Positions 10,077 through 34,603 of a stretch of DNA of 34,603 bases are shown here, in pieces. The stretch is from a virus (Duplodnaviria > Heunggongvirae > Uroviricota > Caudoviricetes). The stretch lies in IMG/VR virus record IMGVR_UViG_2671181056_000001, one strand, 5' to 3'. The notes under the pieces are model-generated. The model was not told where the DNA came from. It was given only the letters and a program-made list of their open reading frames with translations, and did not search any database. Numbering within the stretch: position 1 is the stretch's first letter; every line of letters begins with the position of its first letter. Both the position numbers and the translations under genes were made by a program.

Positions 10077-10083
10077 GGACGCT

Positions 10084-10824: not shown

Positions 10825-10839
10825 TCCGGAGAGTCAGCG

Positions 10840-14232: not shown

Positions 14233-14558
14233 AAACCTTCCGCTGGAAAGTGAAACCCGGTATGGATGTGGCTTCGGCCCCTTCTGTAAGAAAGGTGCGC
14301 TTTGGTGATGGCTATTCCCAGCGAGCGCCTGCCGGGCTGAATGCCAACCTGAAAACGTACAGCGTGACGCTTTCTGTCCCCCGTGAGGAGGCCATGGTAC
14401 TGGAGTCGTTTCTGGAAGAGCACGGGGGCTGGAAAGCCTTTCTGTGGACGCCGCCTTATGAGTGGCGGCAGATAAAGGTGACCTGCGCAAAATGGTCGTC
14501 GCGGGTCAGTATGCTGCGTGTTGAGTTCAGCGCAGAGTTTGAACAGGTGGTGAACTGA
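14229..14558 (+). CDS. M: tail tip protein M (copy A, lambda-type)
   Basis: 109 aa MKTFRWKVKPGMDVASAPSVRKVRFGDGYSQRAPAGLNANLKTY... lambda gpM; start overlaps H stop. Confidence 0.93.
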   Translation: MKTFRWKVKPGMDVASAPSVRKVRFGDGYSQRAPAGLNANLKTYSVTLSVPREEAMVLESFLEEHGGWKAFLWTPPYEWRQIKVTCAKWSSRVSMLRVEFSAEFEQVVN

Positions 14559-15256: not shown

Positions 15257-15261
15257 ATCCC

Positions 15262-16005
15262 ATGACAGAGACAGAATCAGCGATTCTGGCGCACGCCCGG
15301 CGATGTGCTCCAGCGGAGTCGTGCGGCTTCGTGGTAAGAACGCCGGAGGGGGAAAGATATTTCCCCTGCGTGAATATCTCCGGTGAGCCGGAGGCGTATT
15401 TCCGTATGTCGCCGGAAGACTGGCTGCAGGCAGAGATGCAGGGTGAGATTGTGGCACTGGTCCACAGCCACCCCGGTGGTCTGCCCTGGCTGAGTGAGGC
15501 CGACCGGCGGCTGCAGGTGCAGAGTGATTTGCCGTGGTGGCTGGTCTGCCGGGGGGCGATTCACAAGTTCCGCTGTGTGCCACATCTTACCGGGCGGCGC
15601 TTTGAGCACGGGGTGACGGACTGTTACACGCTGTTCCGGGATGCTTACCATCTGGCGGGGATTGAGATGCCGGATTTTCATCGTGAGGATGACTGGTGGC
15701 GTCACGGTCAGAATCTCTATCTGGATAATCTGGAGGCCACAGGGCTGTATCAGGTGCCGTTGTCAGCGGCGCAGCCGGGCGATGTGCTGCTGTGCTGTTT
15801 TGGTTCATCGGTGCCGAATCATGCCGCCATTTACTGTGGTGACGGCGAGCTGCTGCACCATATTCCTGAACAACTGAGCAAACGAGAGAGGTATACCGAC
15901 AAATGGCAGCGACGCACACACTCCCTCTGGCGTTACCGGGCATGGCACGCATCTGCCTTTACGGGGATTTGCAACGATTTGGCCGCCGCATCGACCTTCG
16001 TGTGA
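15262..16005 (+). CDS. K: tail tip assembly protein K, long form with JAB/MPN (HSHPGG...SEAD) and NlpC/P60-like regions (copy A)
   Basis: 247-aa ORF; the C-terminal 199 aa correspond to lambda K as I recall its annotation; the N-terminal extension carries the Glu upstream of the HxH motif. Confidence 0.85.
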   Translation: MTETESAILAHARRCAPAESCGFVVRTPEGERYFPCVNISGEPEAYFRMSPEDWLQAEMQGEIVALVHSHPGGLPWLSEADRRLQVQSDLPWWLVCRGAIHKFRCVPHLTGRRFEHGVTDCYTLFRDAYHLAGIEMPDFHREDDWWRHGQNLYLDNLEATGLYQVPLSAAQPGDVLLCCFGSSVPNHAAIYCGDGELLHHIPEQLSKRERYTDKWQRRTHSLWRYRAWHASAFTGICNDLAAASTFV

Positions 16006-16253
16006 AAACGGGTGCCGAAGCCATCCGGGCGATGGCCACACAGCTCCCTGCGTTTCGTCAGAAGCTGAGCGACGGCTGGTATCAGGTGCGTATTGCCGGG
16101 CAGGATGTTAGCACGTCCGGATTAACGGCACAGTTACATGAGGCTCTGCCTGACGGCGCTGTGATTCATATTGTTCCCAGAGTCGCCGGGGCCAAGTCAG
16201 GTGGTGTATTCCAGATTGTCCTGGGAGCAGCCGCCATTGCCGGATCATTCTTT
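15903..16253 (+). pseudogene. I: tail tip assembly protein I, 5' 117 codons only, cut at N (16254)
   Basis: MAATHTLPLALPGMARICLYGDLQRFGRRIDLRVKTG... matches lambda gpI; overlaps K 3' end by 103 nt as in lambda; homology stops at the N. Confidence 0.85.
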
Positions 16254-16254
16254 N

Positions 16255-16407
16255 CTGATCTCCTGAGATACCACACGTGACCCCACGCGCATTTCACCAT
16301 ACAGAACAGGCATAACATTGCCCTGGGCAACCATGTTATCCAGTGAGGAGAAATAGGTGTTCTGCTTACCGTTATCCGTTGTCTGTGTGCGGGGAGTTCT
16401 GGCTTTC
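16255..16407 (-). pseudogene. I: inverted fragment of gene I 3' region (codons for ...APKARTPRTQTTDNGKQNTYFSSLDNMVAQGNVMPVLYGEMRVGSRVVSQEI)
   Basis: Minus-strand translation matches the lambda gpI C-terminal region; no start or stop of its own; directly abuts the N at 16254. Confidence 0.8.
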
Positions 16408-16833
16408 GGTGGTGGTGCGTCTGCCTCCACGGGGACGGCCATTCAGGCTGCGGCGGCGAACTTCCATTTCGCGACCGGGGGATTTACGGGGACGGGGGGT
16501 AAATATGAACCTGCGGGGATTGTTCATCGCGGGGAGTTTGTCTTCACGAAGGAGGCGACCAGCCGGATTGGTGTCGGCAATCTGTACCGCCTGATGCGGG
16601 GCTATGCGGAAGGTGGTTATGTCGGCGGTGCCGGAAGTCCGGCGCAGATGCGGCGGGCGGAAGGCATTAATTTTAATCAGAACAATCACGTGGTGATTCA
16701 GAACGACGGCCCCAACGGGCGGGCAGGGCCGCAGCTGATGAAAGCGGTGTATGAGATGGCCCGCAAGGGGGCACAGGATGAACTCCGGCTGCAGTTGCGT
16801 GATGGCGGTATGTTATCAGGGAGCGGTGGATGA
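16408..16833 (+). pseudogene. H: 3' fragment of a tape measure gene H (third allele), no 5' part
   Basis: Encodes GGGASASTGTAIQAAAANFHFATGGFTGTGGKYEPAGIVHRGEFVF...GMLSGSGG; many synonymous differences from both full H copies over 16408-16660, then identical to copy B. Confidence 0.8.
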
Positions 16834-17159
16834 AAACCTTTCGCTGGAAAGTGAAGCCGGATATGGAGGTGAACTCGCAGCCATCGGTGCGTGAAGTGCG
16901 TTTTGGTGACGGGTACTCACAGCGTATGGCGGCAGGGCTGAATGCTGACCTGAAAACATACAGGGTGACGCTTTCCGTGACCCGGGAGGAGGCCCGGCAT
17001 CTGGAAGCGTTCCTGGCAGAGCACGGTGGCTGGAAGGCATTTTTGTGGAAGCCACCCTATGCATACCGGCAGATAAAGGTGACCTGTGCCGGGTGGTCTG
17101 CGCGGGTCGGGATGTTGCGCGTTGAGTTCAGCGCGGAGTTTAAGCAGGTGGTGAACTGA
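16830..17159 (+). CDS. M: tail tip protein M (B-type allele, identical to 22981-23310)
   Basis: 109 aa MKTFRWKVKPDMEVNSQPSVREVRFGDGYSQRMAAGLNADLKTYRV... Confidence 0.85.
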   Translation: MKTFRWKVKPDMEVNSQPSVREVRFGDGYSQRMAAGLNADLKTYRVTLSVTREEARHLEAFLAEHGGWKAFLWKPPYAYRQIKVTCAGWSARVGMLRVEFSAEFKQVVN

Positions 17160-17857
17160 TGCAGGATATTCGCGAAGAAAGTCTGAACGAGTCGGTTAAG
17201 TCAGAGCAGTCACCGCGGGTGGTACTCTGGGAAATCGACCTGACGGTACAGGGTGGTGAGCGGTATTTTTTCTGTAATGAGCTGAATGAAAAAGGGGAGC
17301 CGGTCACCTGGCAGGGGCGTAAGTATGAGGCATACCCGATTGACGGCAGCGGCTTTGAGATGAACGGCCGGGGCAGCAGTGCCAGACCGTCGCTGACGGT
17401 GTCCAATCTGTTCGGTCTGGTCACCGGGATGGCGGAAGACCTGCAGAGTCTGGTGGGGGCCACGGTGGTCCGCCGCCGGGTGTATGCCCGTTTTCTGGAT
17501 GCGGTGAATTTCGTTGCGGGCAATCCGGAGGCGGACCCGGAGCAGGAGCTGAGTGACCGCTGGGTGGTGGAGCAGATGTCGCAGCTGACAGCCATGACGG
17601 CCTCGTTTGTGCTGGCTACACCGACCGAGACGGACGGGGCGCTGTTTCCCGGTCGCATCATGCTGGCGAACACCTGTATGTGGGATTACCGGGGAGATGA
17701 ATGCGGGTATAACGGTCCTGCGGTGGCGGATGAGTTCGACAACCCCACCACGGATATCCGTAAGGACAGATGCAGCAAGTGCATGCGCGGGTGTGAACTG
17801 CGCAGGAATGTCGGCAATTTTGGCGGTTTCCTTTCCATTAATAAACTTTCGCAGTAA
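17159..17857 (+). CDS. L: tail tip protein L (B-type allele, identical to 23310-24008)
   Basis: 232 aa, about 80 percent identical to copy A L. Confidence 0.85.
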   Translation: MQDIREESLNESVKSEQSPRVVLWEIDLTVQGGERYFFCNELNEKGEPVTWQGRKYEAYPIDGSGFEMNGRGSSARPSLTVSNLFGLVTGMAEDLQSLVGATVVRRRVYARFLDAVNFVAGNPEADPEQELSDRWVVEQMSQLTAMTASFVLATPTETDGALFPGRIMLANTCMWDYRGDECGYNGPAVADEFDNPTTDIRKDRCSKCMRGCELRRNVGNFGGFLSINKLSQ

Positions 17858-17867
17858 ATCCCGGTTT

Positions 17868-18540
17868 ATGACACAGACTGAATCAGCGATTCTGGCACAT
17901 GCCCGGCGGTGTGCGCCTGCGGAGTCGTGCGGCTTCGTGATAAGCACGCCGGAGGGGGAGCGGTATATCCCTTGTGTGAATATTTCCGCAGAGCCGGAGG
18001 CGTATTTTCGTATCGCACCGGAAGACTGGCTGCGGGCAGAGATGCAGGGGGAGATTGTGGCACTGGTCCACAGTCATCCCGGTGGGCTGCCCTGGCTGAG
18101 CGAGGCTGACCGGCGGTTGCAGATAAAAAGCGCACTGCCCTGGTGGTTGGTCTGCCGGGGTGACATTCACAAATTCCGCTGTGTGCCACATCTGACAGGA
18201 CGGCGCTTTGAGCACGGGGTGACGGACTGTTACACGCTGTTCCGGGATGCTTATCATCTGGCGGGGACTGAAATGCCGGATTTTCATCGCGAGGATGACT
18301 GGTGGCGCAACGGTCAGAACCTTTACCTGGACAATATGGCGGTCACCGGCTTTTACCGGGTGCCCCTGTCCTCTGCACAGGCGGGCGATATTCTGCTGTG
18401 CTGCTTTGGTGCTTCGGTACCGAACCATGCCGCCATTTACTGCGGCAACGGTGAGCTGCTTCACCATCTGCCTGAACAACTGAGTAAACGGGAGAGGTAT
18501 TCCGAAAAATGGCAACGACGAACGCATTCAGTCTGGCGTC
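17868..18540 (+). pseudogene. K: tail tip assembly protein K (B-type), 3' end missing, cut at N (18541)
   Basis: Identical to 24019-24691 then broken at the N; the six-frame ORF continues artificially into U-derived sequence. Confidence 0.8.
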
Positions 18541-18541
18541 N

Positions 18542-18828
18542 CGGCAATTGCCGTTTATCTCACCGGCGCTGAATACACGGGCGAAGAGCTGGACAGCGAT
18601 ACCTGGCAGGCGGAGCTGCATATTGAAGTTTTCCTGCCTGCTCAGGTGCCGGATTCAGAGCTGGATTCGTGGATGGAGTCCCGGATTTATCCGGTGATGA
18701 GCGATATCCCGGCACTGTCAGATTTGATCACCAGTATGGTGGCCAGCGGCTATGACTACCGGCGCGACGATGATGCGGGCCTGTGGAGTTCAGCCGATCT
18801 GACTTATGTCATTATCTATGAAATGTGA
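18542..18828 (+). pseudogene. U: 3' fragment of tail terminator gene U (starts mid-gene right after N)
   Basis: Identical to 9790-10076; encodes ...[93 protein letters not shown]. Confidence 0.85.
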
Positions 18829-18835
18829 GGACGCT

Positions 18836-19576
18836 ATGCCTGTACCAAATCCTACAATGCCGGTGAAAGGTGCCGGGACCACCCTGTGGGTTTATAAGGG
18901 GAGCGGTGACCCTTATGCGAACCCGCTTTCAGACGTTGACTGGTCGCGTCTGGCAAAAGTTAAAGACCTGACGCCCGGCGAACTGACCGCTGAGTCCTAT
19001 GACGACAGCTATCTCGATGATGAAGATGCAGACTGGACTGCGACCGGGCAGGGGCAGAAATCTGCCGGAGATACCAGCTTCACGCTGGCGTGGATGCCCG
19101 GAGAGCAGGGGCAGCAGGCGCTGCTGGCGTGGTTTAATGAAGGTGATACCCGTGCCTATAAAATCCGCTTCCCGAACGGCACGGTCGATGTGTTCCGTGG
19201 CTGGGGCAGCAGTATCGGTAAGGCGGTGACGGCGAAGGAGGTGATTACCCGCACGGTGAAGGTCACCAATGTGGGACGTCCGTCGATGGCAGAAGATCGC
19301 AGCACGGTGACGGCGACGACCGGCATGACGGTGACACCCGCCAGTGCTTCCGTAGTGAAAGGGCAGAGCACCACGCTGACCGTGGCATTCCAGCCGGATG
19401 GCGCAACCGACAAGAGCTTCCGTGCGGTGTCTGCGGATAAAACAAAAGCCACCGTGTCGGTCAGTGGTATGACCATCACCGTGAAAGGTGTTGCTGCAGG
19501 CAAGGTCAACATTCCGGTCGTATCTGGTAATGGTGAGTTTGCTGCGGTTGCAGAAATCAACGTCACCGCCAGTTAA
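18836..19576 (+). CDS. V: major tail tube protein V (second copy)
   Basis: Offset 8752 from copy A; one amino-acid difference (RGWGSS vs RGWVSS). Confidence 0.9.
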
Positions 19577-19591
19577 TCCGGAGAGTCAGCG

Positions 19592-20014
19592 ATGTTCCTG
19601 AAAACCGAATCATTTGAACATAACGGTGTGACCGTCACGCTTTCTGAACTGTCAGCCCTGCAGCGTATTGAGCATCTCGACCTGATGAAACGGCAGGCAG
19701 AACAGGCGGAGTCAGACAGCAACCGGAAGTTTACTGTGGAAGACGCCATCAGAACCGGCGCTTTTGTGGTTGCGATGTCCCTGTGGCATAACCATCCGAA
19801 GAAGACGCAGATGCCGTCCATGAATGAAGCCGTTAAACAGATTGAGCAGGAAGTGCTTACCACCTGGCCCACAGAGGCAATTTCTCATGCTGAAAACGTG
19901 GTGTACCGGCTGTCCGGTATGTATGAGTTTGTGGTGAATGATGCTCCTGAACAGGCAGAGGACGCCGGGCCTGCAGAGCCTGTTTCTGCGGGAAAGTGTT
20001 CGACGGTGAGCTGA
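19592..20014 (+). CDS. G: tail assembly chaperone G (second copy)
   Basis: Identical to 10840-11262. Confidence 0.9.
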   Translation: MFLKTESFEHNGVTVTLSELSALQRIEHLDLMKRQAEQAESDSNRKFTVEDAIRTGAFVVAMSLWHNHPKKTQMPSMNEAVKQIEQEVLTTWPTEAISHAENVVYRLSGMYEFVVNDAPEQAEDAGPAEPVSAGKCSTVS

Positions 20015-20430
20015 GTTTTGCCCTGAAACTGGCGCGTGAGATGGGGCGACCCGACTGGCGCGCCATGCTTGCCGGGATGTCATCCACGGAGTATGCCGAC
20101 TGGCACCGCTTTTACAGTACCCATTATTTTCATGATGTTCTGCTGGATATGCACTTTTCCGGGCTGACGTACACCGTGCTCAGCCTGTTTTTCAGCGATC
20201 CGGAGATGCATCCGCTGGATTTCAGTCTGCTGAACCGGCGCGAGGCTGACGAAGAGCCTGAAGATGATGTGCTGATGCAGAAAGCGGCAGGGCTTGCCGG
20301 AGGTGTCCGCTTTGGCCCGGACGGGAATGAAGTTATCCCCGCTTCCCCGGATGTGGCGGACATGACGGAGGATGACGTAATGCTGATGACAGTATCAGAA
20401 GGGATCGCAGGAGGAGTCCGGTATGGCTGA
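19592..20430 (+). CDS. T: tail assembly chaperone G-T frameshift fusion (second copy; slippery site 19990-19996)
   Basis: Identical to copy A, including the GGGAAAG heptamer. Confidence 0.85.
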
Positions 20431-22984
20431 ACCGGTAGGCGATCTGGTCGTTGATTTGAGTCTGGATGCGGCCAGATTTGACGAGCAGATGGCCAGAGTC
20501 AGGCGTCATTTTTCCGGTACGGAAAGTGATGCGAAAAAAACAGCGGCAGTCGTTGAACAGTCGCTGAGCCGACAGGCGCTGGCTGCACAGAAAGCGGGGA
20601 TTTCCGTCGGGCAGTATAAAGCCGCCATGCGTATGCTGCCTGCACAGTTCACCGACGTGGCCACGCAGCTTGCAGGGGGGCAGAATCCCTGGCTGATCCT
20701 GCTGCAACAGGGTGGTCAGGTTAAGGACTCCTTCGGCGGGATGATCCCCATGTTCAGGGGGCTTGCCGGCGCGATCACCCTGCCGATGGTGGGGGCCACC
20801 TCGCTGGCGGTGGCGACCGGTGCGCTGGCGTATGCCTGGTATCAGGGCAACTCAACCCTGTCCGATTTCAACAAAACGCTGGTCCTTTCCGGTAATCAGG
20901 CGGGACTGACGGCAGATCGTATGCTGGTCCTGTCCAGAGCCGGGCAGGCGGCAGGGCTGACGTTTAACCAGACCAGCGAGTCACTCAGCGCACTGGTTAA
21001 GGCGGGGGTAAGCGGTGAGGCTCAGATTGCGTCCATCAGCCAGAGTGTGGCGCGTTTCTCCTATGCATCCGGCGTGGAGGTGGACAAGGTCGCTGAAGCC
21101 TTCGGGAAGCTGACCACAGACCCGACGTCGGGGCTGACGGCGATGGCACGCCAGTTCCATAACGTGACGGCGGAGCAGATTGCGTATGTTGCTCAGTTGC
21201 AGCGTTCCGGCGATGAAGCCGGGGCATTGCAGGCGGCGAACGAGGCCGCAACGAAAGGGTTTGATGACCAGACCCGCCGCCTGAAAGAGAACATGGGCAC
21301 GCTGGAGACCTGGGCAGACAGGACTGCACGTGCATTCAAATCCATGTGGGATGCGGTGCTGGATATTGGTCGTCCTGATACCGCGCAGGAGATGCTGATT
21401 AAGGCAGAGGCTGCGTTTAAGAAAGCAGACGACATCTGGAATCTGCGCAAGGATGATTATTTCGTTAACGATGAAGCACGGGCGCGTTACTGGGATGATC
21501 GTGAAAAAAAACGCCTGGAGCGGGATGCAGCCCAAAAGAGGGTAGATCAACAGCGTCAACAGGACAAAAATGCGCAGCAGCAGAGCGATACCGAAGCGTC
21601 ACGGCTGAAATATACCGAAGAGGCGCAGAAGGCTTACGAACGGCTGCAGACGCCGCTGGAGAAATATACCGCCCGTCAGGAAGAACTGAACAAGGCACTG
21701 AAAGACGGAAAAATCCTGCAGGCAGATTACAACACGCTGATGGCGGCGGCGAAAAAGGATTATGAAGCGACGCTGAAAAAGCCGAAACAGTCCGGCGTGA
21801 AGGTGTATGCGGGCGATCGTCAGGAAGACAGTGCTCATGCGGCCCTGCTGACGCTTCAGGCAGAACTCCGGACGCTGGAGAAGCATGCCGGAGCGAATGA
21901 GAAAATCAGCCAGCAGCGCCGGGATTTGTGGAAGGCAGAAAGTCAGTTCGCGGTACTGGAGGAGGCGGCACAACGTCGCCAGCTGTCCGCACAGGAGAAA
22001 TCCCTGCTGGCGCATAAAGACGAGACGCTGGAGTACAAACGCCAGCTGGCTGCACTTGGTGACAAGGTTACGTATCAGGAGCACCTGAATGCGCTGGCGC
22101 AGCAGGCGGATAAATTCGCACAGCAGCAACGGGCAAAACGGGCAGCCATTGATGCGAAAAACCTGGGGCTGACTGACCGGCAGGCAGCGCGGGAAGCCAC
22201 GGAACAGCGCCTGAAGGAACAGTATGGCGATAATCCTCTGGCGCTGAATAACGTCATGTCAGAGCAGAAAAAGACCTGGGCGGCTGAAGACCAGCTTCGC
22301 GGGAGCTGGATGGCAGGCCTGAAGTCCGGCTGGAGTGAGTGGGAAGAGAGCGCCACGGACAGTATGTCACAGGTTAAAAGTGCAGCCACGCAGACCTTTG
22401 ATGGTATTGCACAGAATATGGCGGCGATGCTGACCGGCAGTGAACAGAACTGGCGCAGCTTCACCCGCTCCGTGCTGTCCATGATGACAGAAATTCTGCT
22501 TAAGCAGGCAATGGTGGGGATTGTCGGGAGTATCGGCAGGGCCATTGGCGGGGCTGTTGGTGGCGGCGCATCCGCGTCAGGTGGTACAGCCATTCAGGCC
22601 GCTGCGGTGAAATTCCATTTTGCAACCGGGGGATTTACGGGAACCGGCGGCAAATATGAGCCAGCGGGGATTGTTCACCGTGGTGAATTTGTCTTCACGA
22701 AGGAGGCAACCAGCCGGATTGGCGTGGGGAATCTCTACCGGCTGATGCGCGGCTATGCGGAAGGTGGTTATGTGGGCGGTGCCGGAAGTCCGGCGCAGAT
22801 GCGGCGGGCTGAAGGCATTAATTTTAATCAGAACAATCACGTGGTGATTCAGAACGACGGCCCCAACGGGCGGGCAGGGCCGCAGCTGATGAAAGCGGTG
22901 TATGAGATGGCCCGCAAGGGGGCACAGGATGAACTCCGGCTGCAGTTGCGTGATGGCGGTATGTTATCAGGGAGCGGTGGATGA
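20423..22984 (+). CDS. H: tail tape measure protein H (copy B, divergent last ~40 codons)
   Basis: 853 aa; identical to copy A except two substitutions until codon ~813, then a different C-terminus (PNGRAGPQLMKAVYEMARKGAQDELRLQLRDGGMLSGSGG). Confidence 0.93.
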   Translation: MAEPVGDLVVDLSLDAARFDEQMARVRRHFSGTESDAKKTAAVVEQSLSRQALAAQKAGISVGQYKAAMRMLPAQFTDVATQLAGGQNPWLILLQQGGQVKDSFGGMIPMFRGLAGAITLPMVGATSLAVATGALAYAWYQGNSTLSDFNKTLVLSGNQAGLTADRMLVLSRAGQAAGLTFNQTSESLSALVKAGVSGEAQIASISQSVARFSYASGVEVDKVAEAFGKLTTDPTSGLTAMARQFHNVTAEQIAYVAQLQRSGDEAGALQAANEAATKGFDDQTRRLKENMGTLETWADRTARAFKSMWDAVLDIGRPDTAQEMLIKAEAAFKKADDIWNLRKDDYFVNDEARARYWDDREKKRLERDAAQKRVDQQRQQDKNAQQQSDTEASRLKYTEEAQKAYERLQTPLEKYTARQEELNKALKDGKILQADYNTLMAAAKKDYEATLKKPKQSGVKVYAGDRQEDSAHAALLTLQAELRTLEKHAGANEKISQQRRDLWKAESQFAVLEEAAQRRQLSAQEKSLLAHKDETLEYKRQLAALGDKVTYQEHLNALAQQADKFAQQQRAKRAAIDAKNLGLTDRQAAREATEQRLKEQYGDNPLALNNVMSEQKKTWAAEDQLRGSWMAGLKSGWSEWEESATDSMSQVKSAATQTFDGIAQNMAAMLTGSEQNWRSFTRSVLSMMTEILLKQAMVGIVGSIGRAIGGAVGGGASASGGTAIQAAAVKFHFATGGFTGTGGKYEPAGIVHRGEFVFTKEATSRIGVGNLYRLMRGYAEGGYVGGAGSPAQMRRAEGINFNQNNHVVIQNDGPNGRAGPQLMKAVYEMARKGAQDELRLQLRDGGMLSGSGG

Positions 22985-23310
22985 AAACCTTTCGCTGGAA
23001 AGTGAAGCCGGATATGGAGGTGAACTCGCAGCCATCGGTGCGTGAAGTGCGTTTTGGTGACGGGTACTCACAGCGTATGGCGGCAGGGCTGAATGCTGAC
23101 CTGAAAACATACAGGGTGACGCTTTCCGTGACCCGGGAGGAGGCCCGGCATCTGGAAGCGTTCCTGGCAGAGCACGGTGGCTGGAAGGCATTTTTGTGGA
23201 AGCCACCCTATGCATACCGGCAGATAAAGGTGACCTGTGCCGGGTGGTCTGCGCGGGTCGGGATGTTGCGCGTTGAGTTCAGCGCGGAGTTTAAGCAGGT
23301 GGTGAACTGA
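22981..23310 (+). CDS. M: tail tip protein M (B-type)
   Basis: 109 aa; start overlaps H stop. Confidence 0.9.
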   Translation: MKTFRWKVKPDMEVNSQPSVREVRFGDGYSQRMAAGLNADLKTYRVTLSVTREEARHLEAFLAEHGGWKAFLWKPPYAYRQIKVTCAGWSARVGMLRVEFSAEFKQVVN

Positions 23311-24008
23311 TGCAGGATATTCGCGAAGAAAGTCTGAACGAGTCGGTTAAGTCAGAGCAGTCACCGCGGGTGGTACTCTGGGAAATCGACCTGACGGTAC
23401 AGGGTGGTGAGCGGTATTTTTTCTGTAATGAGCTGAATGAAAAAGGGGAGCCGGTCACCTGGCAGGGGCGTAAGTATGAGGCATACCCGATTGACGGCAG
23501 CGGCTTTGAGATGAACGGCCGGGGCAGCAGTGCCAGACCGTCGCTGACGGTGTCCAATCTGTTCGGTCTGGTCACCGGGATGGCGGAAGACCTGCAGAGT
23601 CTGGTGGGGGCCACGGTGGTCCGCCGCCGGGTGTATGCCCGTTTTCTGGATGCGGTGAATTTCGTTGCGGGCAATCCGGAGGCGGACCCGGAGCAGGAGC
23701 TGAGTGACCGCTGGGTGGTGGAGCAGATGTCGCAGCTGACAGCCATGACGGCCTCGTTTGTGCTGGCTACACCGACCGAGACGGACGGGGCGCTGTTTCC
23801 CGGTCGCATCATGCTGGCGAACACCTGTATGTGGGATTACCGGGGAGATGAATGCGGGTATAACGGTCCTGCGGTGGCGGATGAGTTCGACAACCCCACC
23901 ACGGATATCCGTAAGGACAGATGCAGCAAGTGCATGCGCGGGTGTGAACTGCGCAGGAATGTCGGCAATTTTGGCGGTTTCCTTTCCATTAATAAACTTT
24001 CGCAGTAA
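23310..24008 (+). CDS. L: tail tip protein L (B-type)
   Basis: 232 aa. Confidence 0.9.
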   Translation: MQDIREESLNESVKSEQSPRVVLWEIDLTVQGGERYFFCNELNEKGEPVTWQGRKYEAYPIDGSGFEMNGRGSSARPSLTVSNLFGLVTGMAEDLQSLVGATVVRRRVYARFLDAVNFVAGNPEADPEQELSDRWVVEQMSQLTAMTASFVLATPTETDGALFPGRIMLANTCMWDYRGDECGYNGPAVADEFDNPTTDIRKDRCSKCMRGCELRRNVGNFGGFLSINKLSQ

Positions 24009-24018
24009 ATCCCGGTTT

Positions 24019-24762
24019 ATGACACAGACTGAATCAGCGATTCTGGCACATGCCCGGCGGTGTGCGCCTGCGGAGTCGTGCGGCTTCGTGATAAGCACGC
24101 CGGAGGGGGAGCGGTATATCCCTTGTGTGAATATTTCCGCAGAGCCGGAGGCGTATTTTCGTATCGCACCGGAAGACTGGCTGCGGGCAGAGATGCAGGG
24201 GGAGATTGTGGCACTGGTCCACAGTCATCCCGGTGGGCTGCCCTGGCTGAGCGAGGCTGACCGGCGGTTGCAGATAAAAAGCGCACTGCCCTGGTGGTTG
24301 GTCTGCCGGGGTGACATTCACAAATTCCGCTGTGTGCCACATCTGACAGGACGGCGCTTTGAGCACGGGGTGACGGACTGTTACACGCTGTTCCGGGATG
24401 CTTATCATCTGGCGGGGACTGAAATGCCGGATTTTCATCGCGAGGATGACTGGTGGCGCAACGGTCAGAACCTTTACCTGGACAATATGGCGGTCACCGG
24501 CTTTTACCGGGTGCCCCTGTCCTCTGCACAGGCGGGCGATATTCTGCTGTGCTGCTTTGGTGCTTCGGTACCGAACCATGCCGCCATTTACTGCGGCAAC
24601 GGTGAGCTGCTTCACCATCTGCCTGAACAACTGAGTAAACGGGAGAGGTATTCCGAAAAATGGCAACGACGAACGCATTCAGTCTGGCGTCACCGCCACT
24701 GGCACGCATCTGCCTTCACGGGGATTTACAACGATTTGGCCGCCGCCTCAGCCTGTATGTGA
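24019..24762 (+). CDS. K: tail tip assembly protein K (B-type, JAB/MPN plus NlpC/P60-like)
   Basis: 247 aa from MTQTESAILAHARRCAPAESCGFVISTPEGERYIPCVN...; HSHPGGLPWLSEAD motif present. Confidence 0.88.
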   Translation: MTQTESAILAHARRCAPAESCGFVISTPEGERYIPCVNISAEPEAYFRIAPEDWLRAEMQGEIVALVHSHPGGLPWLSEADRRLQIKSALPWWLVCRGDIHKFRCVPHLTGRRFEHGVTDCYTLFRDAYHLAGTEMPDFHREDDWWRNGQNLYLDNMAVTGFYRVPLSSAQAGDILLCCFGASVPNHAAIYCGNGELLHHLPEQLSKRERYSEKWQRRTHSVWRHRHWHASAFTGIYNDLAAASACM

Positions 24763-25340
24763 ACACGGCAGCGGAAGCCATTCGCGCCCTGTCGATGCAG
24801 ATGCCGGGCTTTCGCCGTCAGATGAACGAAGGCTGGTACCAGATACGTATTGCCGGTTATGACACGGCACCGGAGGCGGTGTACGCCCGTCTTCACGAAC
24901 AGCTGGGTGAGGGAACGGTCATCCACATTGTGCCGCGACTGGCCGGGGCCGGAAAGGGTGGACTGCAGATTGTGCTGGGGGCGGCAGCCATCGTGGGCTC
25001 TTTCTTCACTGCCGGGGCATCAATGGCGTTATGGGGTTCAGCCCTGGCAGCCGGTGGTTTTTCTGCCACCACGATGCTGTTTTCACTTGGAGCCAGCATG
25101 ATTCTGGGCGGTGTGGCCCAGATGCTGGCCCCGAAGGCAAAAACACCGGATTACCGCGCAACGGATAACGGCAGACAGAACACGTACTTTTCCTCACTGG
25201 ATAACATGATTGCCCAGGGGAACCCGATGCCGGTGCCTTACGGGGAAATGCTGGTTGGCTCCCGCCGTATATCCCAGGACATCAGCACCCGTGATGAAGG
25301 CGGGGGCGGAAAGGTCGTGGTTATCGGGCGGCAGGGGTAA
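24660..25340 (+). CDS. I: tail tip assembly protein I (B-type, full length)
   Basis: 226 aa MATTNAFSLASPPLARICLHGDLQRFGRRLSLYVNTAAEAIRA...; overlaps K 3' end by 103 nt as in lambda. Confidence 0.9.
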   Translation: MATTNAFSLASPPLARICLHGDLQRFGRRLSLYVNTAAEAIRALSMQMPGFRRQMNEGWYQIRIAGYDTAPEAVYARLHEQLGEGTVIHIVPRLAGAGKGGLQIVLGAAAIVGSFFTAGASMALWGSALAAGGFSATTMLFSLGASMILGGVAQMLAPKAKTPDYRATDNGRQNTYFSSLDNMIAQGNPMPVPYGEMLVGSRRISQDISTRDEGGGGKVVVIGRQG

Positions 25341-25683: not shown

Positions 25684-28600
25684 ATGGGAAAAGGTGGCGG
25701 TAAGGCACACACGCCTCGTGAGGCGAAGGATAATCTCAAATCCACGCAGATGATGAGCGTGATTGATGCGATTGGTGAGGGACTGATAGAAGGTCCGGTG
25801 AAGGGACTGCAGAGTATCCTGGTGAACAAAACCCCGCTGACGGACACGGACGGTAATCCCGTGATACACGGTGTGACGGCGGTCTGACGCGCCGGGGAGC
25901 AGGAGCAGACACCACCGGAAGGCTTTGAGTCCTCCGGTGCTGAAACCGGACTGGGCGTGGAAGTGACGAAGGCAAAACCGGTGACGCGCACCATTACGTC
26001 CGCGAACATTGACCGCCTGCGGGTTACCTTCGGGGTGCAGTCACTGGTGCAGACCACGTCAAAGGGTGACCGAAACCCGACATCCGTCCGCCTGCTGATT
26101 CAGTTACAGCGTAACGGTAACTGGGTGACAGAAAAGGATGTCACCATTAACGGCAAGACCACCTCGCAGTTTCTGGCGTCGGTGATTCTGGATAATCTGC
26201 CTCCCCGTCCTTTTAACATCCGGATGGTCCGGGAGACAGCGGACAGCACCACGGACCAGCTGCAGAATAAGACGCTGTGGTCGTCATACACCGAAATCAT
26301 CGATGTGAAACAGTGCTACCCGAACACGGCCATTGTGGGGCTGCAGGTGGATGCGGAGCAGTTCGGCGGCCAGCAGATGACGGTGAACTACCATATCCGC
26401 GGTCGCATCATCCAGGTGCCGTCAAACTATGACCCGGAAAAACGCACGTACAGTGGTATCTGGGACGGCAGCCTGAAACCGGCATACAGCAACAATCCGG
26501 CCTGGTGTCTGTGGGACATGCTGACTCACCCGCGCTACGGCATGGGAAAACGTCTGGGGGCGGCGGATGTGGACAAGTGGGCGCTGTATGCCATCGGGCA
26601 GTACTGCGACCAGACGGTCCCGGATAGTTTCGGGGAGACCGAGCCGCGGATGACCTTCAATGCGTACCTGGCACAACAGCGTAAGGCATGGGACGTGCTC
26701 AGTGATTTCTGCTCGGCGATGCGCTGTATGCCGGTATGGAACGGCCAGACGCTGACGTTTGTTCAGGACCGCCCGTCGGATGTGGTGTGGCCGTACACCA
26801 ACAGCGATGTGGTGGTGGATGATAACGGCGTGGGTTTCCGCTACAGCTTCAGTGCCCTGAAGGACCGGCACACGGCGGTGGAGGTGAATTATACCGACCC
26901 GCAGAACGGCTGGCAGACCTCCACGGAACTGGTGGAAGACCCGGAAGCCATACTGCGCTACGGACGCAACCTGCTGAAGATGGACGCGTTCGGCTGTACC
27001 AGCCGCGGTCAGGCCCACCGTGCCGGACTGTGGGTGATAAAGACCGAACTGCTGGAAACGCAGACGGTGGATTTCACGCTCGGGTCTCAGGGGCTGCGGC
27101 ACACACCCGGTGACATCATTGAAATCTGTGATAACGACTATGCCGGGACCCTGACCGGCGGACGTGTCCTGTCCATTGATGCTGCCACCCGCACTCTGAC
27201 GCTGGACCGTGAAGTGACACTTCCGGAGACCGGTGCCGCCACGGTGAACCTGATTAACGGCAGCGGTAAGCCGGTGAGTGTGGACATCACCGAACACCCC
27301 GCGCCGGACCGGATACAGGTCAGTACCCTGCCTGATGGTGTGGAGACATACGGGGTGTGGGGACTCTCCCTGCCGTCACTGCGCCGTCGCCTGTTCCGCT
27401 GTGTCTCCGTCCGGGAAAACACGGACGGCACCTTTGCCATCACGGCGGTGCAGCACGTACTGGAAAAAGAAGCCATCGTGGATAACGGTGCCCGCTTTGA
27501 GCCGCAGTCAGGTTCCCTGAACAGCGTCATCCCACCGGCAGTGCAGCACCTGACGGCCAGTATCTGGCGCAGGCGAAATGGGACACGCCGCGGGTGGTGA
27601 AGGGTGTGCGCTTCAGTCTGCGCCTGACCAGTGGTAAGGGAACGGATGCCAGACTGGTGACCACCGCCATCACCGCAGACACGGAGCACCGTTTCAGCGG
27701 CCTGCCGCTCGGGGAATACACCCTGACGGTGCGGGCGATAAACAGCTATGGCCAGCAGGGTGAACCTGCCACCACCACCTTCCGGATTGCCGCACCGGCA
27801 GCACCGTCGCGGATTGAGCTGACGCCGGGCTATTTTCAGATAACCGCAACGCCGCATCTTGCCGTTTATGACCCGACGGTACAGTTTGAGTTCTGGTTCT
27901 CGGAAAAGCGGATTGCGGATATCAGGCAGGTTGAAACCACAGCACGCTATCTTGGCACGGCGCTGTACTGGATAGCCGCCAGTATCAATATCAAACCGGG
28001 CCATGATTATTACTTTTATATCCGCAGTGTGAACACCGTTGGCAAATCGGCATTCGTGGAGGCTGTCGGTCGGGCGAGCGATGATGCGGAAGGTTACCTG
28101 GATTTTTTCAAAGGAGAGATAGGGAAAACACATCTGGCTCAGGAGCTGTGGACGCAGATTGATAACGGTCAGCTTGCGCCTGACCTGGCTGAAATCAGGA
28201 CGTCCATTACGGATGTCAGCAATGAAATCACGCAGACTGTCAATAAGAAACTGAAAGACCAGAGTGCGGCAATCCAGCAGATACAGAAGGTTCAGGTTGA
28301 TACAAATAATAATCTGAACAGCATGTGGGCTGTGAAGCTGCAACAGATGAAGGACGGACGCCTTTATATTGCGGGTATCGGTGCCGGTATTGAGAATACG
28401 CCAGCAGGAATGCAGAGTCAGGTGCTGCTGGCGGCAGACAGGATTGCGATGATTAATCCTGCGAATGGCAACACAAAGCCGATGTTTGTTGGTCAGGGCG
28501 ATCAGATATTCATGAACGACGTGTTCCTGAAACGCCTGACGGCTCCCACCATTACCAGCGGCGGTAATCCTCCGGCATTTTCCCTGACACCGGACGGAAA

Positions 28601-29135
28601 ACTGACCGCTAAAAATGCAGATATCAGTGGCAGTGTGAATGCGAACGCCGGGACGCTCAACAATGTCACAATTAATGAGAACTGTCAGATTAAGGGGAAA
28701 CTGTCAGCCAACCAGATTGAAGGCGATATAGTCAAAACAGTGGGTAAGGCTTTTCCGCGGGACTCCCGGGCACCGGAGCGGTGGCCATCAGGGACCATTA
28801 CCGTCAGGATTTATGACGATCAGCCTTTTGACAGGCAAATTGTTATTCCGGCGGTGGCATTCAGCGGCGCTAAACATGAGCGGGAGAATAACGATATTTA
28901 TTCGTCATGCCGCCTGATAGTACGGAAAAACGGTGCTGAAATTTATAACCGTACCGCGCTGGATAATACGCTGATTTACAGTGGTGTTATTGATATGCCA
29001 GCTGGTCGCGGCCACATGACGCTGGAGTTTTCGGTGTCAGCATGGCTGGTGAATAACTGGTATCCCACAGCAAGTATCAGCGATTTGCTGGTTGTGGTGA
29101 TGAAGAAAGCCACCGCAGGCATCAGTATCAGCTGA
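25684..29135 (+). pseudogene. J: tail tip/host-specificity protein J, disrupted by an in-frame TGA (25885-25887) and a frameshift near 27555-27600
   Basis: Three consecutive ORFs (25684-25887, 25957-27600, 27594-29135) together match lambda gpJ (1132 aa) from MGKG..HTPREAKDNLKSTQ to the C-terminus; the stop replaces the F codon of the VFRAGEQEQTPPEGF motif. Confidence 0.85.
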
Positions 29136-30151: not shown

Positions 30152-33100
30152 ATGACAGTAAAAATTTCTGGCGTGCTTAAAGATGGCACAGGAAAACCAG
30201 TACAGAACTGCACCATTGTGCTGAAGGCCAGACGAACCAGCAGCACGATGGTGGTGAACACGGTGGCCTCTGAAAATCCGGATGAAGCCGGACGTTACAG
30301 CATGGATGTTGAGCATGGTCAGTACAGCGTCACCCTGCTGGTTGAAGGTTTTCCGCCTTCACATGCCGGGACCATTACCGTCTATGAAGGTTCCAGACCA
30401 GGTACGCTGAATGATTTTCTCGGTGCCATGACGGAGGATGATGTCCGACCGGAGGCACTGCGCCGCTTTGAGCAGATGGTGGAAGAGGTGTCACGTAACG
30501 CCTCCGCGGTTGCACAGAATACGGCAGCCGCGAAAAAATCAGCCAGCGAGGCGGCAACTCATGCAACCGATGCTGCAGCCTCAGCACGTGCCGCCAGCAC
30601 GTCAGCCGGACAGGCCGCGTCGTCGGCTCAGTCAGCGTCTTCCAGCGCAGGAACGGCATCGACAAAGGCCCGTGAAGCAGCAAAAAGTGCTGCTGCAGAG
30701 TCATCAAAAAGCGCGGCAGCTACCAGCGCCAGTGCCGCGAAAACGTCAGAAACGAATGCCGCAGCATCACAAAAATCGGCAGCCACTTCTGCATCCACAG
30801 CGACCACGAAGGCGTCAGAAGCTGCCACCTCGGCACGGGGTGCGGCGGCCTCAAAAGAGGCAGCGAAATCTTCAGAAACGAATGCATCATCAAGTGCCAG
30901 TAGTGCAGCTTCCTCGGCAACGGCGGCAGGAAATTCCGCGAAGGCGGCAAAAACGTCCGAGACGAACGCTAAGTCTTCTGAAACAGCAGCGGGACAGAGC
31001 GCCTCAGCTGCGGCAGGTTCAAAAACAGCGGCTGCATTATCTGCCAGTGCCGCGTCAACAAGAGCCGGGCAGGCCTCAGCCAGTGCCACCGCCGCCGGAA
31101 AATCGGCAGAAAGCGCCGCATCATCCGCTTCAACAGCCACAACGAAGGCTGGCGAAGCCACTGAGCAGGCCACGGCAGCAGCGAGGTCAGCTTCCGCAGC
31201 GAAGACATCCGAAACGAACGCGAAAGCGTCGGAAACCCGTGCAGAATCCTCAAAAACGGCTGCCGCATCGTCCGCCAGTTCGGCGGCGTCATCGGCATCA
31301 TCGGCGTCTGCTTCAAAAGATGAGGCGACCAGACAGGCGTCAGCAGCGAAGGGCAGCGCCACGACGGCATCCACGAAGGCGACAGAGGCTGCTGGTAGTG
31401 CGACGGCAGCAGCTCAGAGCAAAAGTACGGCGGAATCTGCAGCAACGCGCGCTGAGACAGCGGCAAAACGGGCAGAGGATATTGCATCCGCCGTGGCGCT
31501 TGAGGATGCGAGCACGACGAAAAAGGGGATAGTACAGCTCAGTAGTGCGACTAACAGCACTTCCGAGTCACTGGCGGCAACACCAAAAGCCGTTAAGGCC
31601 GCGTATGACCTGGCTAACGGGAAATACACCGCACAGGATGCAACGACAGCACAGAAAGGGATAATCCAGCTAAGCAGCGCGACCAACAGCACGTCTGAAA
31701 CGCTGGCGGCAACGCCAAAGGCAGTAAAAGCAGCCAATGACAATGCTGAGAAACGTCTGCAGAAAGATCAGAACGGTGCGGATATCCCTGGCAAAGACAC
31801 CTTTACGAAAAATATTGGTGCCTGCCGTGCCTTCGGTGGGTCAGTAAGCACAACAACAGGAAACTGGACGACTGCACAGTTTATCGAGTGGCTGGATTCT
31901 CAGGGAGCATTTAACCATCCATACTGGATGTGCAAGGGTTCCTGGTCTTATGGCAATAATAAAATCATTACTGATACTGGCTGCGGTAATATTCATCTCG
32001 CCGGAGCTGTCATTGAAGTAATGGGGATAAAGTCAGCGATGACGATCCGCATTACCACTCCGACCACATCCAGCGGTGGCGGAACAACCAACGCCCAGTT
32101 TACCTATATTAATCACGGAACAGATTATTCACCTGGCTGGCGAAGGGACTATAACTCCAGAAATAAGCCAACGGCATCAGAGATCGGGGCGCTACCGTCA
32201 GGTGGAACAGCAGTATCATCAGTTAATCTGGCTTCAAAAGGTCGGGTAGCCGCGCTGACAGACAATACGCAGGGGGCAGCAGGTCTTGAGTTATACGAGG
32301 TGTATAACAACGGATATCCAACAGCGTATGGAAATATCATTCACCTGAAAGGGATGACAGCCGTTGGCGAAGGTGAGTTACTCATCGGCTGGGGGGGGAC
32401 AAGCGGGGCTCATGCTCCGGCATTTATTCGTTCACGACGGGATACGACCGACGCAAACTGGTCGCCGTGGGCGCAGCTTTACACCTCGGCTCATCCTCCT
32501 GCAGAGTTTTATCCAGTCGGTGCACCAATCCCGTGGCCATCAGATACCGTTCCGTCTGGTTATGCCCTGATGCAGGGGCAGACTTTTGACAAATCTGCTT
32601 ACCCGAAACTTGCAGCCGCTTATCCGTCAGGCGTGATCCCTGATATGCGTGGCTGGACGATTAAGGGCAAGCCCGCCAGTGGTCGTGCCGTATTGTCTCA
32701 GGAACAGGATGGCATTAAATCGCACACCCACAGCGCCAGCGCATCCAGTACGGATTTGGGGACGAAAACCACATCGTCGTTTGATTACGGCACTAAATCC
32801 ACGAATAACACCGGGGCGCATACGCACAGTCTGAGCGGCTCTACAAGTTCAGCTGGGGCCCACCAACATAGTCAGACTGGGCCCAGAACGAATAGCGGGA
32901 GTCAACCTACTGGAATGTTTCCGGCAGGGAGTACTCAAGTTAGCGGGACTAATCAGGTTGGTATCAGTGGCTCATTAACCAGTGGCACCTCCCAATGGGT
33001 AGGTAAATCATCTTCAGAAGGAAACCATACACACTCACTGTCCGGCACAGCAGCATCTGCGGGTGCACACGCGCATACTGTCGGTATTGGTGCTCATACG

Positions 33101-33211
33101 CACTCTGTTGCGATTGGTTCACATGGACACACCATCACCGTTAACGCTGCTGGTAACGCGGAAAACACCGTCAAAAACATCGCATTTAACTATATTGTGA
33201 GGCTCGCATAA
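30152..33211 (+). CDS. stf: side tail fibre protein Stf (1019 aa)
   Basis: N-terminus [28 protein letters not shown]... and C-terminus ...[29 protein letters not shown] match lambda Stf; Ala/Ser-rich repeat region; two tandem copies of the phage tail-fibre repeat (GI(V/I)[11 protein letters not shown](S/T)[11 protein letters not shown]). Confidence 0.92.
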
Positions 33212-33792
33212 TGGCATTCAGAATGAGTGAACAAGCACGGACCATAAAAATTTATAACCTGCTGGCCGGAACTAATGAATTTATTGGTGAAGGTGACGCA
33301 TATATTCCGCCTCATACAGGTCTGCCTGCAAACAGTACCGATATTGCACCGCCAGATATTCCGGCTGGTTTCGTGGCTGTTTTCAACAGTGATGAGTCAT
33401 CGTGGCATCTCGTTGAAGATCATCGGGGTAAAACGGTTTATGACGTGGCTTCCGGCGACGCGTTATTTATTTCTGAACTCGGCTCATTACCGGAAAATGT
33501 CACCTGGTTATCCCCGGAAGGGGAGTTTCAGAAGTGGAACGGCACAGCCTGGGTGAAGGATACGGAAGCAGAAAAACTGTTCCGGATCCGGGAGGCGGAA
33601 GAAACAAAAAACAGCCTGATGCAGGTAGCCAGTGAGCATATAGCGCCGCTTCAGGATGCTGTGGATCTGGAGATCGCAACGGAGAAAGAAACCTTGTTGC
33701 TGGAAGCTTGGAAAAAGTATCGGGTGTTGCTGAACCGTGTTGATACATCAACTGCACCGGATATTGAATGGCCAGTAGCACCTATAGGGTAA
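33211..33792 (+). CDS. tfa: tail fibre assembly protein Tfa
   Basis: 193 aa [44 protein letters not shown]... lambda Tfa; start overlaps stf stop (TAATGG). Confidence 0.93.
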
Positions 33793-33870
33793 ATTCGTAA
33801 TGATTACCTAAATACGTTATTCTTTTGTTAAAAAAGTGATTTTGCTATAGGTAGGGAGTATGTTCTTGGA

Positions 33871-33908
33871 TTAAGAATAAAAAATCGCCATGAAAGAGCT
33901 TCATGGCG
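33871..33908 (-). terminator. intrinsic terminator on minus strand (stem CGCCATGAA/TTCATGGCG 33886-33908, U-tract read down to 33871)
   Basis: 9-bp stem, 5-nt loop; minus-strand read ends ATTTTTTATTCTTAA; position corresponds to the end of the leftward b-region transcript in lambda. Confidence 0.55.
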
Positions 33909-34541
33909 AGTACATAAACGTACAAAATGTGATGAAAGTAGAGTGGCGTAAGCCACTATATTAAGATATGACAATAGCGAAGAAAAGTAAATAACATTTT
34001 ATGGACGTTTAATTGTTAATTATAAAAACTAGAGTGCCCGATATTGTTTATCTTGCTTTAAAATAATGTACTCAAACCAAATTTTTGAGCTAAAAGCTCA
34101 AATAATATAAATGCAATAATAATGTTTAATAAGACAATTAGCTTGCTTTGTATTTTCATTTCGGAATACTGTTAAGTAACTTTGATGACCCTAACAATAG
34201 ATCGGAATTTTCTTAGAGTCAATGGTCACTGTTTTTGCTTGCAAAGCAAATGTTTTGGTGGTTATAAGTCGTCTTAATATAGTCACGCATGCAACTTGTT
34301 CCATGCGGAGATTAAAGATTGGAATATAACGCGAAGATGGAATTAAATTACATTTGCAATAATTAATTTATTATTACTCAATAATTACCGATATTATTAT
34401 TGTAAATTAATCATTAGAATGCAAAAAGAAATGTAACGGCAAAATAAGAGGACGATAGCTGAGAAAAAAGCGTGCTTTCCCAATCTGGGGCAAATCACGT
34501 CTGAATGACACCTGAAAACAGGTGGTAGCCTCAAGAAGGCT

Positions 34542-34603
34542 GGTGATGCTGCCAACTTACTGATTTAGTGTATGATGGTGTTTTTGAGGTGCTCCAGTGG
34601 CTT
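34542..34603 (+). mobile_element. IS1 terminal 62 bp (inverted repeat and start of the element), continuing beyond the window
   Basis: GGTGATGCTGCCAACTTACTGATTTAGTGTATGATGGTGTTTTTGAGGTGCTCCAGTGGCTT is the canonical IS1 left end. Confidence 0.9.

Follow-up and report, generated by a model that had tools for sequence, protein, structure and literature searches.

The right-hand end of IMG/VR virus record IMGVR_UViG_2671181056_000001, a 34,603 nt stretch of caudoviricete DNA referred to here as the window, raises the question of what lies between the tail fibre assembly gene tfa and the insertion sequence IS1, within which the window stops. An initial annotation of this segment (33793-34603), made from the sequence alone, described AT-rich DNA poor in open reading frames (ORFs), representing either a truncated b region or cargo, on the disrupted right side of a prophage. 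The segment is a recombinational mosaic, composed of what are termed here module A, a linker, module B and the beginning of IS1. We judge it reasonably probable that it represents the left part of a prophage b region, in which module A is a leftward 'moron' cassette containing an ORF for a small membrane protein resembling YncL of Escherichia coli, and from which IS1 has removed 550 bp.

The left boundary is formed by the end of tfa (33211-33792, plus strand, encoding a protein of 193 aa), which was identified from the ORF list and from the annotation of relatives. Measured in 200 bp windows, the GC content is 0.47-0.53 over tfa and falls to 0.26-0.32 at 33800-34499, confirming the sharp drop past the tfa stop codon, from ~50% to 26-31%, that had been described. 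Of the ORFs overlapping 33793-34603, the two largest have 52 and 48 aa, and none reaches 60 codons; by that rule the segment is indeed poor in ORFs, but the rule concealed a gene-like ORF of 33 codons. Nor does the segment seem to be empty cargo space, as it appears to hold a small-gene cassette.

A conserved 33-codon ORF downstream of tfa

Module A (33793-34370) is the piece of the segment directly following tfa, and is present in 831 of the 5426 complete E. coli genomes searched. It falls into four sequence types, with about 99, 96, 91-94 and 78% identity, amongst which conservation is patchy on a scale of 50-100 bp, with peaks at 33870-33960 (90-95% invariant columns), 34075-34164, 34195-34224 and 34263-34312. 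Nine ORFs of at least 20 aa are found in the module, and only one of these, the 33-codon ORF on the minus strand (34159-34058; MKIQSKLIVLLNIIIAFILFELLAQKFGLSTLF), is intact in every type and has accumulated substitutions of a coding kind. Compared with the 78% copy, it has seven, one and ten changes at the first, second and third codon positions respectively, with seven synonymous and five non-synonymous codon changes; compared with the 91-94% copies, there are four or five synonymous changes and a single non-synonymous one. The other eight ORFs, which are frameshifted or have mostly non-synonymous changes, were rejected as genes for want of a coding signal, and a hairpin within the 33-codon ORF (34102-34084) was discarded since it is not kept in the diverged copies.

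When all alleles of the ORF are considered, 13 of the 23 variable sites are synonymous and ten are non-synonymous, where 22% synonymous sites would be expected (binomial p = 3e-4, a conservative value, as some synonymous codon changes involving several bases were counted as non-synonymous). No insertions or deletions are found in the 102 bp of the ORF, though they occur in the sequence on either side. The 33 aa are intact in all 55 copies with the full-length unit; these came from loci identified through the whole-segment BLAST search or through a pattern matching the 3' block, and were therefore chosen independently of the ORF. One frameshifted variant of the peptide, 43 aa in length, was found in the protein collection. 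This is the pattern of a protein-coding sequence under purifying selection, with the reading frame preserved.

Similarity to the stress-induced membrane protein YncL

The only family in NCBIfam matched by the translated ORF is YncL, 'stress response membrane protein' (NF000537), which was hit by both the window allele (E value 1.3e-5, 25.0 bits, profile positions 1-28 of 30) and the diverged allele (E value 3.7e-5, 23.5 bits). As controls, YncL of E. coli K-12 scored 68.6 bits against the same profile, and seven other small ORFs from the segment had no NCBIfam match. A BLASTP alignment with the K-12 protein (b4598, MNVSSRTVVLINFFAAVGLFTLISMRFGWFI) extends ungapped from Met1, with 11 of 28 residues identical (39%) and 18 of 28 positive; the score of this in-register alignment was not reached by any of 100,000 composition-preserving shuffles, a significance somewhat overstated because the shuffles also destroy the polar-hydrophobic-polar layout. 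Both proteins have a single hydrophobic helix, and they are of similar size, at 33 aa for the peptide and 31 aa for YncL. They share Ser5, a basic residue at positions 6 and 26, an Asn residue at position 12 within the helix and the pair Phe27-Gly28, and their maximum hydropathy over 19 aa is 2.54 and 2.15, respectively. No match for the peptide was found in Pfam, PHROGs or PADLOC.

The two genes differ in their setting: yncL is found at the core patD-ortT locus, whereas the gene for the peptide is prophage-borne, AT-rich and situated after tfa, lacks a Shine-Dalgarno sequence and is followed by a long conserved 3' untranslated region (UTR). On the basis of these comparisons we have filed the peptide as a putative YncL-like paralogue, and not as an equivalog, because both the score, at 25 bits against a curated cut-off of 35 bits, and the genomic context fail to agree with those of YncL. 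The YncL family is itself already known; what would be new is an unannotated, phage-borne small gene of YncL-like type. YncL is a 31 aa stress-induced small protein of the inner membrane. It is reported to be induced upon heat shock, in minimal medium and in stationary phase, and its production is reported to depolarise the membrane, with condensation of the nucleoid, reduced viability and a shift of the cells into a low-activity state (PMC12542507).

Transcription signals and RNA structure

Upstream of the ORF is a promoter-like site matching the consensus (TTGACT-17-TATTGT, 34222-34194, minus strand), with a predicted transcription start near 34187 and hence a predicted leader of ~28 nt without a Shine-Dalgarno sequence. 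The -35 hexamer is invariant, whilst the -10 hexamer is either TATTGT or, in diverged copies, TATCGT. Just upstream of the -35 hexamer is the palindrome TTTGCTT-GCA-AAGCAAA (34234-34250), a possible operator, which is kept in three of the sequence types and degraded in the 78% type. A second palindrome, AGTGGC-GTAA-GCCACT, is found at 33942-33957; both had been recorded in the initial annotation, each one base away from its actual position.

At the other end of the module is a minus-strand intrinsic terminator (33909-33875), with the sequence TCGCCATGAAG-CTC-TTTCATGGCGA followed by TTTTTTATT; the terminator scan reports it as an 11 bp stem at 33909-33885, then TTTTTTATTC. Two terminator-like sites were detected in 1 kb, against 0.5 +/- 0.6 in shuffled sequences. 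All ten of the ten stem pairs compared are kept in seven variants, with an A-U pair at the apex changing to G-U on the minus strand only. The previously proposed terminator just after tfa is therefore present, and leftward transcription through the segment, which had been deduced from it, is plausible.

The predicted 3' UTR is ~170 nt long and includes the most conserved block of the segment (33864-33966, minus strand; 90-95% invariant columns, against 35-75% in the flanks), which could be a structured 3' UTR or the source of a 3'-derived small RNA (sRNA). The last 100 nt have a predicted fold with a free energy of -27.1 kcal/mol (z = -6.15), in which a 6 bp hairpin is followed by unpaired sequence, then by a second, short hairpin and finally by the terminator. 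The first of the palindromes to be recorded forms the small hairpin AGUGGC-UUAC-GCCACU (33942-33957) on this strand, and two independent substitutions within it (one in locus L061, the other in L010 and L011) each produce a U-G wobble on the minus strand and a C-A mismatch on the plus strand. In total there are three independent one-sided hairpin substitutions giving G-U on the minus strand and C-A on the plus strand, and because they keep pairing on the minus strand only, they point to the block functioning as a minus-strand RNA.

A proposed leftward moron cassette

The morons of lambdoid phages, such as lom and bor of lambda and those of HK97, are independent units of promoter, gene and terminator found between phage genes. 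Module A resembles them in having its own promoter-like site and a clear terminator, in the difference in GC content between it and its neighbours (26-31% against ~50%), in lying beyond the tail fibre genes, where one module gives way to another, and in being variably present, as it occurs in only 4 of 50,697 phage records in addition to the genomes above. It differs from them in that it runs against the late operon, and in that its predicted product is only 33 aa.

We propose that module A is a self-contained leftward cassette of this kind, extending from promoter to terminator. The sigma-70-like promoter would drive a leftward transcript consisting of a short leader, the 33-codon ORF and the structured 3' UTR, and the terminator would halt transcription before it ran antisense into tfa. 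The peptide would be a single-pass inner-membrane protein related to YncL, the production of which may, by analogy, cause partial depolarisation of the membrane and set off stress responses. Expression in the lysogen is probably low, given the AT-rich context of the type bound by H-NS, the weak ribosome-binding region and possible pairing between the start codon region and the 3' UTR. To the right lie the linker and the stump of an old serU-type arm, and IS1 then inserted into this AT-rich DNA, taking out 550 bp; in relatives, a YdeO-like AraC gene, attR and the host flank are intact beyond it.

A number of points weigh against this proposal. The peptide does not attain the YncL cut-off, AT-rich DNA easily gives rise to hydrophobic ORFs, and the test for selection depends on 23 sites from approximately four sequence lineages. 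In none of the variants does the ATG have a Shine-Dalgarno sequence before it, the leader (...ACAGTATTCCGAAATG) being without a purine-rich motif, whereas K-12 yncL has the ribosome-binding motif AAGGTGG. Exact and degenerate DNA patterns detected no copy amongst 185,579 species-representative genomes, no lineage was found in other species or beyond prophages of the E. coli type, the ORF has not been called by annotation pipelines in any RefSeq genome or phage record examined, and only three such peptide sequences, in two clusters at 50% identity, occur amongst 15 billion predicted proteins. The most conserved part of the module is non-coding, such that the main product could be an RNA; and the window stops 62 bp into IS1, the right side having been read in relatives only. 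Alongside these, a library of 1.84 billion representative proteins contains just the peptide and one frameshifted variant, pattern searches of IMG/VR and metagenomes returned only the same four sequence types, and hence no deeper material for covariation analysis, and a full-text search of the papers available found no mention of the sequences, the peptide or a phage-borne YncL.

The most serious alternative, which we think unlikely, is that the segment is non-coding, being both an AT-rich spacer bound by H-NS and the long upstream control region of the rightward YdeO-like AraC gene, with the ORF arising by chance and the terminator left behind by earlier leftward cargo such as the sitABCD operon. 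This would fit the lack of a Shine-Dalgarno sequence and of any annotation, the presence in these 750 bp of several other ORFs of 22-52 aa attributable to chance, the AraC gene to the right in relatives, and the position of module A downstream of a leftward sitABCD operon in other prophages. However, no other ORF of the module shows the synonymous bias together with so few changes at second codon positions, and the 33-codon ORF is also the only one with a family match, in which both length and register are retained; the 50-100 bp patches of conservation track the promoter, the ORF and the 3' UTR; and module A persists where no AraC gene follows it.

Conversely, the cassette might do more than has been proposed above. 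Module A lies beside the tail fibre genes in several lambdoid prophage lineages, and we entertain, as a rather doubtful suggestion, that it is an unrecognised conversion or defence cassette, in which a depolarising peptide of the YncL family is gated by hok-like pairing of the 5' and 3' parts of the mRNA, and the 3' end doubles as an sRNA.

The pairing on which such gating would depend is predicted by RNAalifold from seven variants of the minus strand. An inverted repeat of 25 nt (34272-34296 against 33942-33966; 76% complementary, with a perfect core of 12 nt) links an upstream conserved block (34263-34345), defined from the conservation profile, to the 3' UTR, and is predicted to form a helix (34296-34272 with 33966-33942) of 20 pairs, one of them compensatory; this would need a transcript starting upstream of the predicted promoter. 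A second predicted helix joins the start-codon region to the 3' UTR through 15 pairs, of which one is compensatory and four are broken in the diverged type, and is absent from the centroid fold. Because the deep lineages effectively number two, and the sequences that yielded the structure are also those used to judge it, both helices are only suggestive.

On a second alternative reading, module A could be a locus resembling type I toxin-antitoxin systems, encoding a membrane toxin the mRNA of which is held untranslated by long-range pairing, as in hok, and opposed by an antisense or divergent sRNA antitoxin. The peptide is small, hydrophobic and predicted to span the membrane once, and its relative YncL depolarises the membrane and lowers viability (PMC12542507). 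Such a peptide, the long structured UTRs and the predicted start sequestration are reminiscent of Hok/Sok, TisB/IstR-1, ZorO/OrzO and DinQ/AgrB; the two predicted helices contain two compensatory pairs between them, and promoter-like hexamers on the plus strand (33968-33997) could drive an overlapping antisense RNA. We nevertheless regard this reading as improbable: the peptide has no sequence relation to these families, no antitoxin RNA was identified, the plus-strand -35 hexamer is not conserved, no conserved pair of promoter and terminator was found on the plus strand, and no direct repeat longer than 12 nt gives complementarity in trans. Nor was there a match in Rfam, and YncL itself has no known antitoxin.

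The Rfam search covered 33000-34603 at E values of up to 1, along with two relatives at the gathering score, and returned only IS009 (RF02111), at 33554-33752 in the window and also in a relative. Although its score of 218 bits exceeds the gathering threshold of 117, this match is wholly inside tfa, and seems to reflect the coding sequence of tfa more than a separate RNA gene.

That the product of the module is instead an sRNA, comprising the ~100 nt conserved 3' end (33975-33876, minus strand), either processed from the mRNA or independently transcribed, and acting on host or phage mRNAs through CUACUUUCAUCACAUUUU, we think quite improbable as a replacement for the cassette, though it is compatible with it. 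Hfq-dependent sRNAs typically have hairpins and an unpaired stretch ahead of a terminator that ends in a U tail, and the 3' end, which resembles them in its predicted structure, with two hairpins, is the most conserved block of the segment, folds with unusual stability and has substitutions that preserve pairing on the minus strand only. However, it matches no Rfam family at E values of up to 1, has no conserved promoter directly upstream and always accompanies the ORF, and its high identity may reflect recombination tracts, as locus L011 switches sequence type beside the block.

The b region and its mosaic pieces

A BLAST search with the 749 bp between tfa and IS1 found this sequence, or parts of it, in 1343 of the complete E. 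coli genomes; all matches were chromosomal, and 280 were full length. In the full-length relatives, the order of genes is J, lom, stf and tfa, followed by ~1.5 kb of AT-rich DNA without an annotated gene and then an AraC gene, to the right of which scraps of IS2/IS3-type transposase genes lead to ybhB-bioA-bioB. These prophages thus occupy the attachment site of lambda, with ybhC on one side and ybhB-bioA on the other. The sequenced genomes of three phages, mEp332, PhiR70_1 and ev099, are organised in this way too, with attP and int coming next, and alignment of the att sites revealed a lambda-type P arm, the core TTTATAC and a B' arm. Because relatives and phages share this arrangement, as well as the lambda-type arms and core, the segment can be placed by comparison in the b region, which is non-essential, of a prophage of the lambda-att group typified by mEp332, ev099 and PhiR70_1, and forms the left part of that region. 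As in lambda, this region lies between the tail fibre genes and att, and the lambda b-region position assigned by the initial annotation is upheld by the gene order and att site of the relatives. The b region of lambda itself contains ea47, ea31 and ea59; none of these is annotated in the b regions of the relatives, although no search was aimed at them.

Module A is found directly 3' of tfa in all ten of the annotated contexts inspected, with different downstream neighbours. At the lambda att site it is followed by the AraC gene, in a defective prophage at the Qin site by a tfa fragment and the ydfJ flank, and elsewhere by a leftward sitABCD operon or a gene for a major facilitator superfamily transporter. 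At three loci (L008 4858-5687, L009 4772-5645 and L012 3813-4686) the module lies between two diverged copies of the end of tfa, each of ~100-140 bp and in direct orientation. Such bracketing would let homologous recombination gain or lose the module, or move it between phages. The 25 nt inverted repeat and these flanking fragments also led to module A being considered as a mobile element of the miniature inverted-repeat transposable element type. This was rejected, since the perfect core lies at the inner, not the outer, ends of the repeat arms, and since the flanks are diverged copies of the last ~100 bp of tfa and not a target duplication.

To the right of module A is the linker, 86 bp of AT-rich sequence (34371-34456) found only in the lambda-att type, and then module B (34457-34541), which comprises the first 85 bp, up to the point of interruption by IS1, of the phage-side arm of a fossil serU-type attachment region. 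In uninterrupted relatives, module B runs on for 535 bp, and it is also found at the right ends of other prophages, in ST131 next to zinT and in O157:H7. Its distal 340 bp are 97% identical to the K-12 chromosome, corresponding to the last 62 nt of serU and 278 bp of downstream sequence; this stretch (L001 6860-7199) is present in the b regions of mEp332, ev099 and PhiR70_1, and is deleted in the lineage with IS1. A search for a tRNA fragment, which the initial annotation had recommended, is answered by these 62 nt, which lie outside the window; no complete tRNA gene was detected when the relatives were scanned for them, the serU piece being recognised through the alignment with K-12.

Because the distal 340 bp match the 3' end of serU and the adjoining chromosome, the b region of these three phages contains the fossil right junction of a prophage once integrated at serU, together with captured host DNA. 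The serU stretch is a fossil of imprecise excision from the serU site, later recombined into a phage using the lambda att site. Host DNA is picked up through imprecise excision in the gal and bio transducing phages of lambda as well, and the end of serU joined to neighbouring chromosome is the scar to be expected of such an event at a serU site; in the window, only 85 bp of the phage-side arm survive. Such a junction within phage genomes is a clear record of the capture of host DNA and of the exchange of modules.

The IS1 junction and the attachment site

The final 62 bp of the window (34542-34603) are identical at every base to the start of a complete 768 bp IS1A, including the left inverted repeat, with the transposase genes on the plus strand; the IS1 terminus had thus been correctly recognised. 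Comparison of a relative without IS1 (L001) with one containing it (L002) places the element exactly at the junction found in the window, and shows that 550 bp of the uninterrupted sequence have been replaced. The initial annotation had proposed looking for target duplications: in the relatives there is no 9 bp duplication, the flanks being AAGAAGGCT and CTTATTGGC, and DNA has been lost instead. Because the target duplication is missing and 550 bp are replaced, the pattern in the relatives bears the signature of IS1 insertion with adjacent deletion. It differs in no unusual way from other such events, having an exact left end, a complete element in AT-rich DNA and a deletion on one side, and the left junction is inherited in at least 91 complete genomes.

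Phage ev099 has an annotated hypothetical protein of 55 aa over the IS1 site (34407-34541 of the window, minus strand; L001 6615-6782), the 5' end of which IS1 would truncate. It was not retained as a gene: it has no family match and no coding signal, the divergence being too low for a test.

The right junction of IS1 is found in at least 102 complete E. coli genomes, and in all eight genomes present amongst the top matches to both junctions the spacing fits a single complete IS1. In E. coli strain 104, IS1 is followed by 206 bp, the YdeO-like AraC gene, the IS2/IS3 scraps, attR and ybhB-bioA; attR there comprises the P arm, the core TTTATAC and a B' arm that differs at one base, and at the opposite end of the prophage xis and int adjoin ybhC. 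A search for the attR core, as had been recommended, accordingly succeeded next to ybhB-bioA in relatives both with and without IS1 (L002 and L001), at a site outside the window. The right side had been described as disrupted, and this is accurate in so far as IS1 has taken 550 bp of b-region DNA in the relatives, but the loss or separation of attR is not supported, as the site is intact in strain 104, the sole relative with IS1 to have been read through. Four IMG/VR draft contigs with the segment also stop 31-90 bp into the same IS1, which makes it most likely that the end of the window is an assembly break inside a repeat. That IS1 truncated the right side of the prophage, deleting or displacing attR and rendering it non-excisable, is very unlikely: the window does terminate within IS1, has a rearranged tail gene region and belongs to a lineage in which 550 bp were deleted without a target duplication, yet every relative checked has one complete IS1 with a right junction entering the DNA upstream of the AraC gene, strain 104 also has attR, ybhB-bioA and int-xis, and several independent draft contigs break at this same element. 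An ordinary b region, a shared IS1 and a probable contig break remove the false lead of a crippled attR. The net change in size caused by IS1 in the relatives is only +218 bp, in a non-essential region, and packaging need not suffer from it.

Other features of the window and its relatives

The AraC-family regulator in the b region of the relatives is 247 aa long and encoded on the plus strand (L002 7518-8467; L001 7506-8249). It scores 148.9 bits against the YdeO model, the cut-off of which is 348, and because it falls below this cut-off it is called, from its sequence, a putative YdeO/GadX-like paralogue. Prophage-encoded AraC-like regulators are known in AppY of DLP12 (PMC10057817) and in PatE and Psr of enterohaemorrhagic E. 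coli (PMC10877973), the positions of which are comparable; the gene in the relatives differs in lying outside the window and in scoring below the YdeO cut-off. In the IS1 lineage, IS1 lies 206 bp upstream of the AraC gene, with its transposase genes in the same orientation, and has replaced 550 bp of AT-rich upstream DNA; an effect on the expression of the regulator is possible.

The tail gene region of the window (9790-25288) is rearranged relative to phage ev099. Positions 1174-16253 are collinear with ev099, at 96% identity, and are followed by an inverted piece of 157 bp (16255-16411), a second partial block of tail genes, H'-M-L-K (16409-18540; 79% identity to ev099), and a third block, which extends over V to I (18542-25288; 88.7%). 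The window therefore contains two to three non-identical tandem copies of the tail genes, which could reflect a genuinely chimeric or tandem prophage, or else a chimera created during assembly. The tail tip gene J is represented at 25957-29135 by two overlapping ORFs (25957-27600 and 27594-29135), where relatives have a single gene of ~1165 aa; this suggests a frameshift or a recombinant junction. In strain 104 (L088 8732-21074), the major capsid gene is split by an element of ~11 kb, which has genes for an integrase and a primase, capsid and decoration genes of its own and a DUF262 and HEPN gene pair, and looks like a phage satellite within the capsid gene of its helper.

Significance of a prophage-borne YncL-like gene

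The putative YncL-like gene is found in ~15%, or about one in seven, of complete E. coli genomes, and is conserved within the prophages of this species. As phage mEp332 carries it, and has K-12 MG1655 as its recorded host, this pairing should offer an easy system in which to study the YncL family. The existence of a phage-borne copy suggests that prophages can extend the host's set of small stress membrane proteins.

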